From: Pseudomonadota bacterium
GTDB lineage: Bacteria; Pseudomonadota; Alphaproteobacteria; ATCC43930; CGMCC-115725
Reading direction: 5' to 3'
DNA length: 28,475 bases
NCBI GenBank assembly: GCA_021790295.1
Contig: JAJYIC010000002.1
Location: 1-28,475, forward strand
The notes beneath the pieces were generated by a model. The model was given only the letters and a program-made list of their open reading frames with translations, was not told the origin of the DNA and did no database searches. Below are positions 18,336 through 27,065 of the stretch, piece by piece. Position numbers and translations under genes: made by a program. How positions within the stretch are numbered: position 1 is the first letter of the stretch; each line of letters opens with the position of its first letter.

Positions 18336-18793
18336 CAGGAGACCTTTGGCCGGCAAAGCATCAAAGCCGCGCGTTTGCAGACGGCCACGATCTCGCCCCT
18401 CTGGTTGAGCCCCTGATGCTCGAATTCGACGATGCCGGCGTCGGCGCGCGAGCGGCTGCGGCGCGTGCCTAGCACGATCGTGCGCGCTCTCAAGGTGTCG
18501 CCGTGGAAGACCGGTTTTGGAAAGCGGACCTCGGTCATGCCGAGGTTGGCGACGGTGGTGCCGAGAGTGGTGTCGCCGACGGAAAGGCCGACGACGAGGC
18601 CGAGAGTGAAGATGCTGTTGACGAGGCGCTCTTTGAACTCCGTCCCTTTGGCGAATTCGGCGTCGAGGTGAAGGGGCTGAGGGTTCATCGTCAGGGTGGT
18701 AAAGAGCACGTTGTCCATCTCGGTAACGGTGCGCGTGGTCTCGTGCTCGAATATTTCGCCTTCGGCGAATTCCTCGAAATAGCGTCCGCTCAT
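18335..18793 (-). CDS. MaoC family dehydratase, Rv2499c-like
   Basis: [56 protein letters not shown]. Confidence 0.92.
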
Positions 18794-20232
18794 CGCTTCT
18801 CCTCCTTTTGCGGCCCCCTTTCGCGGCGGAGGGGTGCGATCATCGCCTCGGGCCGCACCCAGCGATCGAAATCGGCGGCGCGAAGAAAGCCGGTCTGCAA
18901 AGCCGCCTGCCGCAGCGACAGCCCTTCGCGCTCCGCGAGAAGGGCAATCTGCGCCGCCTTTTCGTGGCCGATATGGGGGACAAGGGCGGTCGCGAGCATC
19001 AAGCCGCTTTCGAGATGCTCCCTGATCCGCTTCTCGTCGGGCTCGAGGCCTCGGGCGCAGCGCTCATCGAAAGAGCGACAGGCGTCGGCGAGAAGCTCGG
19101 CCGATTCGAGAACATTATGCAAGATCACCGGCTTATAGGCGTTCAATTGAAACTGGCCCTGCGAGCCGGCGAAGGCGACCGCATGATCGTTGCCGAAAAC
19201 CTGCACGCACACTTGTGTCAAGGCTTCGCATTGCGTGGGGTTGATCTTGCCGGGCATGATCGAGGAGCCGGGTTCGTTTTCCGGGATCTTGAGTTCGCCG
19301 ATCCCGGCGCGCGGGCCGCATGCGTAAAGGCGTATATCGCTCGCGATCTTGTAAAGGGCGCCCGCAAGGGTGCGCAGCGCGGCGCTCGCATTGACGAGAG
19401 CATCGTGAGCGGAAAGCGCGGCGAACTTGTTCAGCGCCGAGAGGAAAGGCCGGCCCGTCTCTGCCGCGATCATGGCCGCCGCGCTCTCGCCAAAACGCGG
19501 ATCGGCGTTGAGCCCGGTGCCGACCGCGGTGCCCCCGAGGGCCAGAGAAAGGAGCCGCTTTTCCGCACTTTCGATCAGGGCCATCCCCTCTTGGAGCTGG
19601 GCTTCCCAACCCGAGATCACCTGCCCCAATAAAATGGGTGTGGCGTCCTGAAGATGGGTTCGGCCGACCATGACGATCCCCGCATAGGCCGCCCTCTTTT
19701 CGCCGAGCGTGCGCGAAAGCCCGGCAAGCGCCGGGAGAAGGCGGCCGGAGAAAGCCTCGACCGTGGCGATATGCATGACCGTCGGGAAGACGTCGTTCGA
19801 GGATTGCCCGCAATTCACGTCGTCGTTCGGATGGATCGGCGACTTCCCTCCGAGAGCGCCGCCGGCGAGCGCGTTGGCCCGATTCGCGATGACCTCGTTC
19901 GCGTTCATGTTGGTTTGCGTTCCCGAGCCGGTCTGAAAGACGACGAGGGGAAATTCGGCGTCGAGCGCGCCCTCGATCACTTCCTGCGCCACCCTTTCGA
20001 TAAGCGCCGCCTTTTCCGCGGAAAGGACGCCCAGATCCCGGTTCGCTCGGGCCGCGCTTTTCTTGACGATCCCGAGCGCGCGTATGACCCCGCGCCCCCA
20101 GCGGAAACGATCTTTCCCGATCGGGAAGTTTTGCCGCGAGCGCTCCGTCTCGGCGCCCCAAAGCCGCTCGGCCGGCACCTTGACCTCGCCAAGGGCATCC
20201 CCTTCGATGCGGTATCGCGCCTTTCTAGCCAT
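18790..20232 (-). CDS. fumC: Class II fumarate hydratase
   Basis: [39 protein letters not shown], signature [15 protein letters not shown]. Confidence 0.96.
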
Positions 20233-23224: not shown

Positions 23225-24523
23225 ATGAGGTGGTTGGCAAGCGTGTTCCTGGCGGCGGGGCTTTTGTTCCCCGGCTTCGCGGCGGCCGCGCCCGCCTCCG
23301 CCAAAAGCCTCCCGGCGCCATCGACCGCCGCCTACAGCTCCGTCTATGACGACCTCAATCTGTTCAACCAGGCTTTCGACCGCATCCGCCGCGACGCGGT
23401 GCAGCAGATGGCGGGGGAGCCTTTGGTGCGGGCCGCGATCGCCGGCATGTTGGCTTCCCTCGATCCCCATGGGGCCTATTTCGACAAAAAGGCGCTCTCT
23501 CTCGGGCGCGGCGCCGAGGATACGGTCGGTCTCGCGGTGACGTTGCGGCAGGGGACGGTTCGGGTGATCGCGCCGCGCGAGGGCTCTCCGGCGGCCGCGG
23601 CGGGCATCAAGGCCGCAGACATCATCTTGACCATCGGCAAAAAGCCGGCCGGCGTGATGACCCTCGGCGATATCGAAAAGCGGCTCCAAGGCCCGCCCGG
23701 AAGCGTCCTCGAATTGCAGATCGAACGCGCCGGCATCGATCATCCTCTCAAAGTCAAGGTGACGCGCGCGCTCTTCAGCTTGCAGACGGTCAGCTCCCGG
23801 CTTTTGGGGGATATAGGTTACATACGCCTTGCCGGTTTCGACGCCGGCACGCCGGCGGCCGTGGCGGCGGCAATCTCGGATTTCAGGCAGAAGCGCGGGA
23901 AAAAGCTGATCGGGATCATCCTCGATTTGCGCAACAATCCGGGAGGGAATTTCGCCTCCGCGGTCAAGGTCGCCGATGAGTTTCTCGACAAAGGGGTGAT
24001 CGCCCTCATCGAGGGCCCGCAGCCGCCGTCAAAGCCGATCCGGGCAAAGGCGGGGGATCTTGCCTCGGCTCTGCCGATGGTCGTCCTCATCAACCGCGGT
24101 ACGGCCGACGAGGCCGAACTCCTCGCCGCCGCGCTCAAGGACAACCGGCGGGCGGTTCTGGTCGGCAGGCGCAGCTTTGGCGAAAGCGCGATCGAGGCGA
24201 TGATCCCGCTCGCCGACGGCGGCGCGATCCGTCTCGCCACCACACGCTTTCTCACTCCCGACGGCCGCAACATCGAAGGCAAGGGCATAAGTCCCGACAT
24301 CGCGGTAAAGCCGCTAAAGCTCGTCAAGATCAAGGAGGGCCTGCGCATCCGCGAGGCCGATCTGCCCGGTGCGCTCAAAAACCCCGACGGCAAGACGCTG
24401 CCGCCGGCGCCGGCAGCGGCCGGGCCCGGGGCCGCCTTCGCAAGCCACGGCGACGAACAGCTCGTCCGCGCCGCCGATATCCTGCGCGCTCTCGCCATTG
24501 CCAAAAGCCCGGACCCGGGGTGA
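23225..24523 (+). CDS. S41A/CtpA-like C-terminal protease homolog (PDZ + protease domain) lacking the catalytic Ser and Lys
   Basis: Signal peptide MRWLASVFLAAG, LDPHGAY, GSPAAAAGIKAAD, IGYIRL, LDLRNNPGG, RFLTPDGRNIEGKGISPDI; GGAGG RBS. Confidence 0.9.
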   Translation: MRWLASVFLAAGLLFPGFAAAAPASAKSLPAPSTAAYSSVYDDLNLFNQAFDRIRRDAVQQMAGEPLVRAAIAGMLASLDPHGAYFDKKALSLGRGAEDTVGLAVTLRQGTVRVIAPREGSPAAAAGIKAADIILTIGKKPAGVMTLGDIEKRLQGPPGSVLELQIERAGIDHPLKVKVTRALFSLQTVSSRLLGDIGYIRLAGFDAGTPAAVAAAISDFRQKRGKKLIGIILDLRNNPGGNFASAVKVADEFLDKGVIALIEGPQPPSKPIRAKAGDLASALPMVVLINRGTADEAELLAAALKDNRRAVLVGRRSFGESAIEAMIPLADGGAIRLATTRFLTPDGRNIEGKGISPDIAVKPLKLVKIKEGLRIREADLPGALKNPDGKTLPPAPAAAGPGAAFASHGDEQLVRAADILRALAIAKSPDPG

Positions 24524-24627: not shown

Positions 24628-25425
24628 ATGGGCACGGTCATCCTCGAACGGCGCCAAGGGGTGTTGGAGATCATCCTCAACCGCCCCGATATCTTGAACG
24701 CCGCCAACCGCGAGCTGATCACCGAATTGGCCGAGGCCGCCGCCGAAGCGGAGAACGACCCTGGCGCGCGGGCGGTGCTTTTGCGCGGGGCCGGCTCGCA
24801 TTTCATGGCCGGCGGGGACATCCGCATGTTCGGGGAGCTGTGCGCGCTTTCGAGCGAGGCGCGGCGGGAGGCGCTTTACGAGATTGTCGACGGCCTCCAT
24901 CCGATCCTTCTCTCGTTGCGTCACATGGGAAAGCCGGTCGTCGCCGCGGTCCAGGGCGCCGCAGCCGGGGTCGGCCTCAGCCTCGTTCTCGCCGCAGACC
25001 TCGCGCTTGCCGCAGAAAACGCGATCTTTGCCTTCGGCTACATCCATCTCGGGACGAGCCCCGACGGGGCGGCGACGGCAACCTTGCCGAGGCTTGTCGG
25101 GTTGAAGAGGGCGACCGAACTGATGTTTCTCGGCGAGCGCTTCGATGCGCGCCAAGCGCTCGAATGGGGCCTCATCAACCGGGTTGTGCGAGAAGAGGCT
25201 CTTTTGCCCGAGGCGCGCGCTCTCGCCGGCCGTCTCGCCGCCGGGCCGACGGCGGCCTATGCGCGCACGAAAGCCCTGATCGAGGCTTCGAGCCGGCAGG
25301 CGCTCGCTACGCAGCTAAAGCGCGAAGCGGAAAGTTTTGCCGCCTGTGCCGCGAGCGAGGATTTTGTCGAAGGGGTGCGCGCCTTTCTCGAAAAGCGCCC
25401 GCCTTCTTTTAACGGGCGGGGCTGA
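24628..25425 (+). CDS. Enoyl-CoA hydratase/isomerase (crotonase), PaaG-like
   Basis: LNRPDILNA, FMAGGDI, KPVVAAVQGAAAGVG, GTSPDG, DFVEGVRAFLEKRPP. Confidence 0.92.
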   Translation: MGTVILERRQGVLEIILNRPDILNAANRELITELAEAAAEAENDPGARAVLLRGAGSHFMAGGDIRMFGELCALSSEARREALYEIVDGLHPILLSLRHMGKPVVAAVQGAAAGVGLSLVLAADLALAAENAIFAFGYIHLGTSPDGAATATLPRLVGLKRATELMFLGERFDARQALEWGLINRVVREEALLPEARALAGRLAAGPTAAYARTKALIEASSRQALATQLKREAESFAACAASEDFVEGVRAFLEKRPPSFNGRG

Positions 25426-25457: not shown

Positions 25458-25778
25458 ATGACGAGCCGAGCTTGGCGTTTGTGGCCGCTGCTGCCGGCGG
25501 TCCTCTCGGCGGCCGCGCTCAGCGGTTGCTATTTCAATCCTTATACGGGATACGTCTATCCTTGCGACGCGTATTACGGCTGTTTCTCGACGCCTTATTA
25601 TTCCTACCCGCCTTATTATTTTTACCCGCCGGGCCCGTGGGGTTTTGCGCCCGGCGCTTTCGGCCGGAGCGCAGGGCGTTTGCCGCCGCGATCGGCGCCG
25701 CCCTCGACAGCGGGTGCGGTCGCTGCGAAGAGGCTTCCCCCGGCCCCTCCCTCGACTTCCCGGCCTTCGACCCGCTAG
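25458..25778 (+). CDS. Small Tyr-rich lipoprotein
   Basis: Lipobox LSGC, Tyr/Pro-rich mature N-terminus, GGGGGA upstream. Confidence 0.65.
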   Translation: MTSRAWRLWPLLPAVLSAAALSGCYFNPYTGYVYPCDAYYGCFSTPYYSYPPYYFYPPGPWGFAPGAFGRSAGRLPPRSAPPSTAGAVAAKRLPPAPPSTSRPSTR

Positions 25779-25796
25779 CAGCCTTTCAGCTCCCTT

Positions 25797-26618
25797 TCAC
25801 CCGCTCGCTTCTGCCGCTTCGAGGGCCTCCATCACTTTGAAAGCGTCGCTGAGCGCCGCGGGGTCGTGCGTGCGGATGAAGTCGGCGCCCTTCGATGCGG
25901 CATAAAGTTCGGCCGCCAGCGTCGCCGCGGCGAGACGGGAGGGAGGGCTCTGCGCCGTAAGGGCGCGCAAAAACGACTTGCGTGAAACCGAGACGAGGAC
26001 GGGAAGGCCATAGCGCCCTTTGAGACGATCGAGGTTGGCCAAAACCGAAAGCGAGGCTTCTCCCCTTCGGCCGAGGAAATAGCCCATGCCGGGGTCGAGG
26101 ATCAGCCGTTCGCGGGCGATTCCCGCCTCTTCGAGCGCTCTCGTCCGGGCGTCGAATAAGCCTTCGATGCTGCGCCAGACTTCCCCTTCCGCCACATCCG
26201 CCTGCCCTGCCCGGTCGCGTTCGAGAAGGGCATGCATGACGATGAGCCGCGCCTTCGAGCGGGCGAGAAGAGGGTACAGGGCCGGGTTTTCGAAGCCCTT
26301 TATATCATTCAGAAAAGCAACCCCGCGCGCGATCGCCCAGCGTTGCGTTTCGGGCCGGAAGCTGTCGACCGAGATCGCTGCGCCCCGCGCTTCGAGAGCG
26401 GCGACCACAGGCTCGAGGCGGCGTATCTCTTCGTCCGCGCCGACCGCCGCCGCGGCGATGTTGCTTGCCGAAGGGCCAAGATCGATGACGGCGGCTCCCT
26501 CGTCGAGGAGGCGCAAAGAGTGTTCGATCGCCGCCGCCGGGTCGAGATAAAGGCCGCCGTCGGAAAAGCTGTCCGCGGTGAGGTTGACGATGCCGAAGAT
26601 CGGCGGACGAGCCTTCAC
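25797..26618 (-). CDS. folP: Dihydropteroate synthase, Sul2-like (folP* type)
   Basis: IFGIVNLTADSFSDGG, VIDLGP, DSFRPETQ, LNDIKGF, LILDPGMGYFLG, SVSRKSFLRALT, AATLAAEL, GADFIRTH. Confidence 0.95.
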   Translation of the reverse strand: MKARPPIFGIVNLTADSFSDGGLYLDPAAAIEHSLRLLDEGAAVIDLGPSASNIAAAAVGADEEIRRLEPVVAALEARGAAISVDSFRPETQRWAIARGVAFLNDIKGFENPALYPLLARSKARLIVMHALLERDRAGQADVAEGEVWRSIEGLFDARTRALEEAGIARERLILDPGMGYFLGRRGEASLSVLANLDRLKGRYGLPVLVSVSRKSFLRALTAQSPPSRLAAATLAAELYAASKGADFIRTHDPAALSDAFKVMEALEAAEASG

Positions 26619-26657
26619 CGCTTTCTCCCTTTCATCCGCGCGGAATCGCCGCCGCCC

Positions 26658-27065
26658 TCACGGCTCGCGTCCCCGTTCGAGGATCGCGCCGACGCCGTCG
26701 GCATCGGCGAAAACGTCCAGTTTTTCGACAGAGACCCTCACCCTTTCGACTTTGGGATCGAGAAGGCAGACGGCGCAGATGCGTTCGGCCAAGCCCTCGC
26801 AAAGATCGACGTGGCCCTTTTGCGCGATCTCGCGGATCCGGGCCACGACCTTTTCGTAATTGATGACGCGGCCGCGATCTTCGCCCGGGAAAGGGGACGC
26901 GGCGAGAAGATCGACTGAGACGCGTACGCGCTGTTTGTGCCGGCGCTCGCTCTCGTCTATGCCGATGCTGCACATCAGAACAAGGCCGCGTATGGTGACG
27001 GTGTAGCGCGCCTGGGAGGGCGAGGAGCCGAAACCCTCGCCGAAAGAAAGATCGCTCTTTGTCAT
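26658..27065 (-). CDS. folB: Dihydroneopterin aldolase
   Basis: IRGLVL..SIGI..ERRHKQRVRVSV, INYEKV, LCEGLAE, VRVSVEK (catalytic Tyr/Glu/Lys positions retained); directly upstream of the DHPS gene. Confidence 0.88.
   Translation of the reverse strand: MTKSDLSFGEGFGSSPSQARYTVTIRGLVLMCSIGIDESERRHKQRVRVSVDLLAASPFPGEDRGRVINYEKVVARIREIAQKGHVDLCEGLAERICAVCLLDPKVERVRVSVEKLDVFADADGVGAILERGREP

Follow-up and report, generated by a model that had tools for sequence, protein, structure and literature searches.

Locus and gene content

The window, as the whole 28,475-nt stretch analysed here (contig JAJYIC010000002.1 of an uncultured alphaproteobacterium) is called below, carries the gene folP*, which encodes a dihydropteroate synthase (DHPS) resembling the sulfonamide-resistance enzymes Sul1–Sul3. 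The features of the locus are collected in Table 1. The GTG start codon of folP* is preceded, at a distance of 6 nt, by the Shine-Dalgarno sequence AAGGGAG. The stop codon of folB lies 39 nt upstream of this start on the same strand, and the two genes together make up the span singled out in an earlier note on this DNA. The longest open reading frame (ORF) of folB begins at TTG 27101; the ATG at 27065 is the upper coordinate of that span. The translation agrees with what the note had read from the sequence. All the motifs that it quoted, namely DPGMGYFLG, GPSASN, DSFRPETQ, LNDIKGF and SVSRKSFLRALT, are present in the 273-aa product, folB is the neighbouring gene, and the first Phe of the Sul motif is Tyr, as seen both in the translation and in the alignment (Tyr180).

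The genes folB and folP* are probably co-transcribed, as suggested by their common strand, the short gap and their overlap in relatives. The two genes share one base in contigs carrying a 71%-identical homologue (P0003) and are 3 nt apart in the P0077 contigs.

Table 1. Features of the folP* locus, numbered from the first letter of the window
Feature	Position	Strand	Basis
folP*, Sul-type dihydropteroate synthase, 273 aa, GTG start	25797..26618	(-)	ORF translation, profile and PDB matches, AlphaFold model
alpha6 motif DPGMGYFLG with two-residue Sul-type insertion	26070..26096	(-)	Translated at coordinates, alignment with Sul1-3
Tyr180 codon	26079-26081	(-)	Alignment numbering against Sul1-3
Loop-2 segment GPSASN (canonical counterpart GGESTRPG)	26460..26477	(-)	Translation and alignment with canonical and Sul-type sequences
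Shine-Dalgarno-like AAAGGGAG, 6 nt 5' of folP* GTG	26625..26632	(-)	Direct sequence reading
folB, dihydroneopterin aldolase, 135 aa, ATG at 27065	26658..27065	(-)	Pfam FolB (PF02152) 76 bits; TIGR00526 57 bits, cut-off 45
106-aa Tyr/Pro-rich ORF between ECH and folP* end	25458..25778	(+)	ORF list
Enoyl-CoA hydratase (ECH), convergent with folP*	24628..25425	(+)	Pfam ECH_1 194 bits
S41 C-terminal-processing peptidase homologue	23225..24523	(+)	Pfam Peptidase_S41 150 bits and PDZ

Family assignment and predicted structure

The folP* product passes the TIGR01496 DHPS model with 234 bits (cut-off 162.6) and matches PF00809 (Pterin_bind) with 197 bits (cut-off 25.5) over model positions 1–244 of 244. 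The allele-level NCBIfam models gave 306 bits for Sul2, 272 bits for Sul3 and 245 bits for Sul1, and all three, with cut-offs of 475–600 bits, are missed. The score for Sul2 is far below the 575 bits required by its model NF000295; near-identity to a described sul allele, named in the earlier note as a ground against novelty, is thus absent. The likeness to Sul enzymes described in the note nevertheless goes well beyond chance. Sequence matches in the PDB are led by Sul2 (286 bits; 7s2j, E = 2.7e-84), Sul3 (266 bits) and Sul1 (236 bits), whereas canonical DHPS reach 167 bits at most. The protein is 57.6% identical to the product of plasmid sul2 over 261 residues (tblastn), 50.8% identical to that of sul3 and about 49% identical to Sul1.

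The AlphaFold model, built on an input alignment of 30 sequences, has a pLDDT of 91.4 and a pTM of 0.90. All 15 top PDB structure matches of this model are Sul1–3, and canonical DHPS structures rank after them. The model superimposes on ligand-bound Sul3 (8scd) with a TM-score of 0.94 and a root-mean-square deviation (rmsd) of 1.3 Å, and on Sul2 (7s2k) with a TM-score of 0.92 and an rmsd of 1.4 Å.

The active site was compared in an alignment of 78 DHPS sequences, comprising 12 canonical FolPs and 66 Sul-type enzymes. The window protein retains every one of the 36 columns with a conservation of 95% or more in this set, including the near-invariant residues N12, D85, N104, D175, K214, R249 and H251. 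Of the 14 columns by which the Sul type can be told from the canonical type, it shares 12 with the Sul type, Met178, Phe181 and Leu182 among them. The two-residue insertion is clear in alignments with 12–13 canonical alphaproteobacterial FolPs, where GMGYFLG stands against GIGF--GK. In two phylogenetic trees the Sul-type clade is split from canonical FolP with 100/100 support, and the window protein branches with Sul1–3 and with known FolP*, the type defined in Rhodobiaceae and Leptospiraceae by Sanchez-Osuna et al. 2019 (PMC6335563).

The strict PROSITE seed pattern of the “Sul motif” from PMC6335563 (including G-F-F-L) is failed with seven mismatches in 43 positions, one of which is Y180 for F. 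Sul1–3 show no mismatches and are the only exact matches in the sequence set; Parvibaculum sequences have 2–5 and canonical FolP 19. The seven mismatches may explain why lineages like that of the window went unnoticed in PMC6335563. The Gly-Phe-Phe motif has been noted in hundreds of NCBI DHPS entries, with unclear significance (PMC10328974). We hold with high confidence that folP* encodes a chromosomal housekeeping DHPS of the Sul type.

Tyr180 and predicted insensitivity to sulfonamides

Tyr180 aligns with Phe179 of Sul2, Phe178 of Sul1 and Phe177 of Sul3. At this position the protein departs from the conserved Phe of Sul-type enzymes, while Met178, Phe181 and Leu182 are kept, and residues 179–181 are helical in the predicted model, as they are in Sul structures. 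In Sul enzymes, the side chain of this Phe blocks sulfonamides sterically, and its backbone amide bonds p-aminobenzoic acid (pABA) (PMC10328974, Venkatesan et al.). Replacement of the Phe with Gly lowered the inhibition constant for sulfamethoxazole (SMX) 90–243-fold and left catalysis unharmed, Trp at the same site of Sul1 and Sul3 left the co-substrate interactions largely unaltered, and the neighbouring Leu and Met matter as well (PMC10328974). The FolP* enzymes of Parvibaculum and Leptospira lift the minimum inhibitory concentration of SMX for E. coli to 512 mg/L or more, compared with 8 mg/L in their absence (PMC6335563).

FFLS is the form of the motif in 108 of approximately 131 close homologues; LFLS is found in 15, FFLG in five, YFLG in two and HFLS in one. 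Tyr was found at the site in separate lineages: in the window, in P0117, in the genome behind locus L025, which belongs to another family, and in three relatives of Sul1. Tyr has thus turned up in no fewer than four distinct lineages of the Sul type, and the site can also be Leu, Met or His. As far as sequence comparison goes, Tyr180 is a rare but recurrent natural variant of the key Phe.

A Sul-type alpha6 region with two extra residues points to an enzyme with a likely intrinsic insensitivity to sulfonamides, a prediction that draws on the motif, the fold and published work on related enzymes. Tyr180 itself would probably preserve the discrimination against these drugs, because the mechanism is steric. 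It is also conceivable, albeit unlikely, that the enzyme is of the Sul type in sequence and yet sensitive to sulfonamides or weakly discriminating, owing to Tyr180 and to the changes following the motif (RRGEA for xxPET). The seven mismatches to the 43-position Sul pattern, with the key Phe among them, would agree with this possibility, as would the rarity of Tyr among the close homologues (two of about 131) and the fact that Tyr at this site is not mentioned in PMC10328974. However, Tyr is not smaller than Phe, which matters for a steric mechanism, and Trp at this site in Sul1 and Sul3 brought little change to co-substrate interactions (PMC10328974). The presence of Tyr in at least four Sul-type lineages, besides Leu, Met and His, indicates that the site takes large side chains. 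Met178 and Leu182 are retained, and the predicted alpha6 region is helical like that of Sul structures.

The apparently sole dihydropteroate synthase of the cell

The host metagenome-assembled genome (MAG) originates from mine drainage and comprises 2.7 Mb in 415 contigs, with 84% completeness and 3.4% contamination; the window contig is 28.5 kb long. The earlier note had proposed a check for a second folP. A Pterin_bind search of this 84%-complete MAG yielded no DHPS beyond folP*, the only other match being the methionine synthase MetH. The gene folK was found on another contig of the MAG. Relatives with 95–99%-complete genomes have a single DHPS match each, and it is of the Sul type. We propose that folP* would serve as the housekeeping DHPS of this uncultured mine-drainage alphaproteobacterium, with the predicted role of condensing dihydropterin pyrophosphate with pABA in de novo folate synthesis. 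The support for DHPS catalysis is indirect and consists of folP* being the sole DHPS found and of the presence of folB and folK.

The neighbourhood of folP* appears chromosomal. Its GC-content (0.656) and third-position GC-content (GC3, 0.748) are in line with those of the neighbouring genes. No match to glmM, integrase or transposase was found among the neighbouring ORFs scanned (17.4–28.5 kb, a part of the window ORFs), no tRNA was found, and no meaningful flanking repeats were found around the gene. The context typical of mobile sul2 (ISCR2, a glmM fragment, or strA-strB on small plasmids) is not seen in the flanking ORFs scanned, where the neighbours are folB, ECH and the S41 peptidase. 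Relatives have folB orthologues 63–75% identical to that of the window, adjoining folP*. The orthologues of ECH are 65–71% identical and stand beside folP* in the relatives G014, G004 and G020, and beside canonical folP in G003. The S41 peptidase is syntenic in G004 and in the P0003 and P0077 contigs. Hence, the block S41-ECH-folP*-folB is common to genus relatives and to independent NCBI/ENA contigs with 71%- and 63%-identical homologues. The claim of a chromosomal, intrinsic Sul-type DHPS in a folB-folP operon holds, with no sign of mobile elements in the scanned ORFs, in the tRNA search or in the repeats.

These data bear on another explanation, according to which folP* is a recent, accessory acquisition for resistance or else sits on a mis-binned contig, the real folP lying in the unassembled 16% of the genome. 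The fragmentation, incompleteness and contamination level of the MAG leave some room for it, and one relative (G020) carries both types of folP. On the other hand, the block around folP* is syntenic with genus relatives, the GC and GC3 values match those of the neighbours, features of mobile elements were not found, near-complete relatives have FolP* as their only DHPS, and the canonical copy in G020 may itself be contamination. This explanation is regarded as very improbable.

In G020 (L058, C222), the Sul-type folP occupies the usual locus. The canonical folP lies on a 2.5-kb contig, and its identity to the other canonical FolPs sampled does not exceed 57%. Given the short contig and the low identity, this copy may be contamination, or else a separately acquired second copy.

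Neighbouring genes and repeats

An 18-nt direct repeat (25790-25807 and 26625-26642, 16 of 18 positions identical) was considered as an insertion scar and rejected, as six relatives lack it. It brackets folP* exactly and has the minus-strand sequence G[A/G]TGAAAGGGAG; one copy contains the ribosome-binding site (RBS) of folP* and the other overlaps the stop codon. The repeat is treated as a chance or RBS-like sequence.

In the 106-aa ORF located between ECH and folP*, the N-terminus resembles that of a lipoprotein (..LSGC), and the Tyr/Pro-rich part includes a tandem repeat of 18 nt (25591-25626). The ORF gave no match to Pfam or other families and no tblastn match in the loci of relatives. 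The other scanned neighbours are metabolic or housekeeping genes and encode a fumarase, a DedA/VTT protein and an S-adenosylmethionine (SAM) hydroxide adenosyltransferase. The gene at 18790-20232 on the minus strand belongs to the class II fumarase/aspartase family. It was rejected as a species-tree marker: close orthologues (73–76% identity) are present in only two of 24 genus genomes, and the remaining genomes match it at about 53%, no better than other classes do. Rather than the housekeeping fumC, this gene is probably a separate paralogue that goes with the catabolic cluster next to it.

Distribution and proposed replacement of the canonical gene

A Sul-type gene is present in about 18 of 300 sampled alphaproteobacterial genomes, in roughly nine further families. 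These genes score at least 236 bits and the canonical genes of the same sample at most 172 bits, so the two types are separated by a clear gap. In the family of the window, the Sul type was found in two of the 19 sampled genera, and the other 17 have canonical FolP only. The carriers comprise 12 of 13 sampled genomes in the genus of the window and 13 of 14 in one other genus. Genus members G003, G016, G022 and G371 have canonical FolP only, and the canonical proteins of the first three are 74–79% identical to one another.

The position of the canonical gene is informative. It is convergent with folB in G016 (L059), in G022 (L060) and in a genome of an outgroup genus, G254 (L063), and in G003 (L061) it is located downstream of ECH and co-directional with it. 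Thus, in the three canonical-bearing genus members inspected and in G254, the ECH-folB interval that contains folP* in the window contains the canonical gene, oriented the opposite way. Together with the prevalence of canonical folP in 17 of the 19 genera, this suggests an old in-place replacement of canonical folP at the ECH-folB locus. The description of the setting as native, given in the earlier note, stands as regards the folB-folP operon but needs qualifying in view of this probable replacement. The direction of the replacement, from canonical to Sul-type, is likely. In the proposed course of events, an ancestor would have acquired the Sul-type gene within the interval beside folB and subsequently lost canonical folP; folP* would be old and vertically inherited within the genus of the window and one other genus of the family.

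In four genomes, Sul-type folP appears in two adjacent pieces or with internal stops (G019:C12:163029-163824, G023:C56:183294-184095, G437:C53:63117-63930 and G011:C1:362745-363540), and G011 (362745-363540) shows only weak, broken Sul-type matches. Such matches may reflect frameshifts, pseudogenes or assembly errors.

Phylogenetic position among Sul-type lineages

The closest homologues of the window protein are 71% identical to it, and its genus relatives and metagenomic proteins form a clade with it (100/98). This clade also includes a protein from an NCBI MAG labelled “Stellaceae bacterium” (62% identical). The nearest chromosomal relatives of Sul2 are the FolP* proteins of Parvibaculum/Parvibaculaceae, which are 77–81% identical to it, in agreement with PMC6335563. 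In both trees Sul2 is nested inside the Parvibaculum/Parvibaculaceae clade with support of 100/97–99.

In the first tree, Sul1 was placed on a long branch as the sister of the clade of the window (98/87). Fifteen environmental proteins, 56–63% identical to Sul1, were added for the second tree. There, Sul1 joins these 15 relatives (100/98), and the pairing with the clade of the window falls to 71/89. The candidate sister relationship between Sul1 and the clade of the window is not claimed after this drop in support. A tree in which the clades of the window and of Sul2 were united was 10.8 log-likelihood units worse and was not rejected by the approximately unbiased (AU) test (p = 0.27). With these two results, the backbone of the Sul type is a polytomy of at least eight lineages, of which the clade of the window is one.

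The earlier note had proposed folP* as a reservoir or a sister lineage of sul2. The first part of this proposal is contradicted by the trees: Sul2 is nested among Parvibaculaceae sequences, so the window gene is not the reservoir of sul2. The second part is neither shown nor rejected by the AU test, and the best tree weakly prefers the Sul1-containing clade (71/89). Overall, it is improbable that mobile sul2 came from the folP* lineage or that the two are immediate sisters. Sul2 is the best match of the protein in both NCBIfam and the PDB, and the union of the two clades survives the AU test. Nevertheless, the identity to Sul2 amounts to only 57.6%, the FolP* proteins that enclose Sul2 are far closer to it, and the best tree places the clade of the window beside the one containing Sul1. 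In addition, glmM, the neighbour that marks the source locus of sul2 (PMC6335563), was not found in the scanned flanks. The folP* lineage of the window would then stand apart from the Parvibaculaceae genes, the source of sul2.

One of the environmental Sul1-like enzymes, P0363 (L103:5140-6840 and L104; ena:ERZ27252098 k141_240960; jgi:3300005563 Ga0068855_100000530), is about 58–59% identical to Sul1 and has the motif GMGYFLS. Approximately 530 bp upstream of its gene, on the same strand, there is a gene for a 109-aa small multidrug resistance (SMR) transporter, 53% identical to QacEdelta1. Its best NCBIfam match is the integron-type Qac family, with 138 bits against a cut-off of 188. The order of the two genes recalls qacE-sul1 of the 3'-conserved segment of class 1 integrons, and the other neighbours (a pyrroloquinoline quinone (PQQ) dehydrogenase and P450s) look chromosomal. 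A parallel with qacE-sul1 was rejected: three further proteins of the Sul1-like clade lack the adjacency, and the pairing may therefore be due to chance.

Evaluation and significance

The explanation that accounts best for these data is that folP* encodes a housekeeping, sulfonamide-insensitive DHPS of the Sul type, which arrived by an old replacement and belongs to a lineage apart from the source of sul2. We consider this explanation, taken as a whole, to be fairly probable. Several points weigh against it. The substituted residue is the decisive one, and Tyr adds a hydroxyl near the site of the pABA carboxylate. At 84% completeness, the MAG leaves room for a second folP. Outgroup parsimony, and not a species tree, is the basis for the direction of the replacement. 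Furthermore, species with canonical folP are no further from the window in folB and ECH identity than those with folP*, so repeated exchange is possible. RNA evidence for folP* was not found, the metatranscriptomes of the same study containing next to none of the sampled words; the only run containing window DNA is the probable source metagenome from mine drainage. This result speaks neither for nor against expression.

The claim of an undescribed lineage holds in a narrow sense. The literature searched names Rhodobiaceae and Leptospiraceae, and it yielded no description of a Sul-type folP in the family of the window, nor of Tyr variants. In the wider sense it fails, since metagenomic homologues number in the thousands in public databases, with the label “dihydropteroate synthase type 2” at JGI. 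The two additional features of folP*, namely the replacement of a canonical gene in place and a naturally occurring Tyr for the key Phe, are modest.

The findings mean that Sul-type, probably sulfonamide-insensitive DHPS extend beyond Rhodobiaceae and Leptospiraceae, and folP* adds one data point. For surveillance, environmental sul2-like matches at about 55–70% identity would mostly represent housekeeping genes of free-living bacteria and not mobile resistance. For enzyme evolution, a canonical target gene appears to have been swapped in place for a presumably insensitive one long before drug use, and some lineages naturally have Tyr, Leu, Met or His where Phe is regarded as “essential”. Clinical understanding is unchanged, and within its clade folP* is ordinary.

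A broader reading is doubtful. It holds that, among chromosomal genes with a taxonomic anchor, the Sul-type folP of the two genera is the nearest sister to the lineage from which sul1 came, that it displaced the canonical gene in place, and that Tyr is a functional alternative to the “essential” Phe. If it were true, sul1 would not have descended from a Rhodobiaceae gene via sul2, contrary to an earlier proposal, and a natural target replacement would have predated drug use.

Comparison with known systems

Canonical FolP (the DHPS of E. coli, Yersinia and Xanthomonas) shares with the window protein the TIM-barrel fold and the near-invariant residues for pterin, pyrophosphate and Mg. The canonical enzymes are 30–41% identical to it, lack the two additional alpha6 residues and have GGESTRPG in loop 2. 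With plasmid-borne Sul2 (PDB 7s2j/7s2k), the window protein has in common the alpha6 architecture, the Met, the Leu and the second Phe. It differs from Sul2 in having Tyr180 for Phe179 and GPSASN for GPASSN, and its gene is not mobile and has no glmM fragment in the flanks scanned. As for Sul1 and its environmental relatives, most members of the clade of the window share the GFFLS form of Sul1, whereas the window protein itself reads GYFLG.

The closest parallel in kind is provided by FolP* of Parvibaculum lavamentivorans and other “Rhodobiaceae” (PMC6335563). Like the window protein, it is a chromosomal alphaproteobacterial DHPS with the two-residue insertion and represents the cell’s own enzyme. 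Members of the Rhodobiaceae group confer SMX resistance in E. coli (PMC6335563). The window protein is about 53–59% identical to the sampled Parvibaculum/Parvibaculaceae sequences and falls into a separate clade. The loci differ, with folB-folP*-ECH in the window and ftsH/tetR-folP*-glmM in Rhodobiaceae (PMC6335563). The window is further distinguished by Tyr in place of the key Phe and by its origin in a different family from that of Parvibaculum, one in which two of the 19 sampled genera carry the Sul-type gene.

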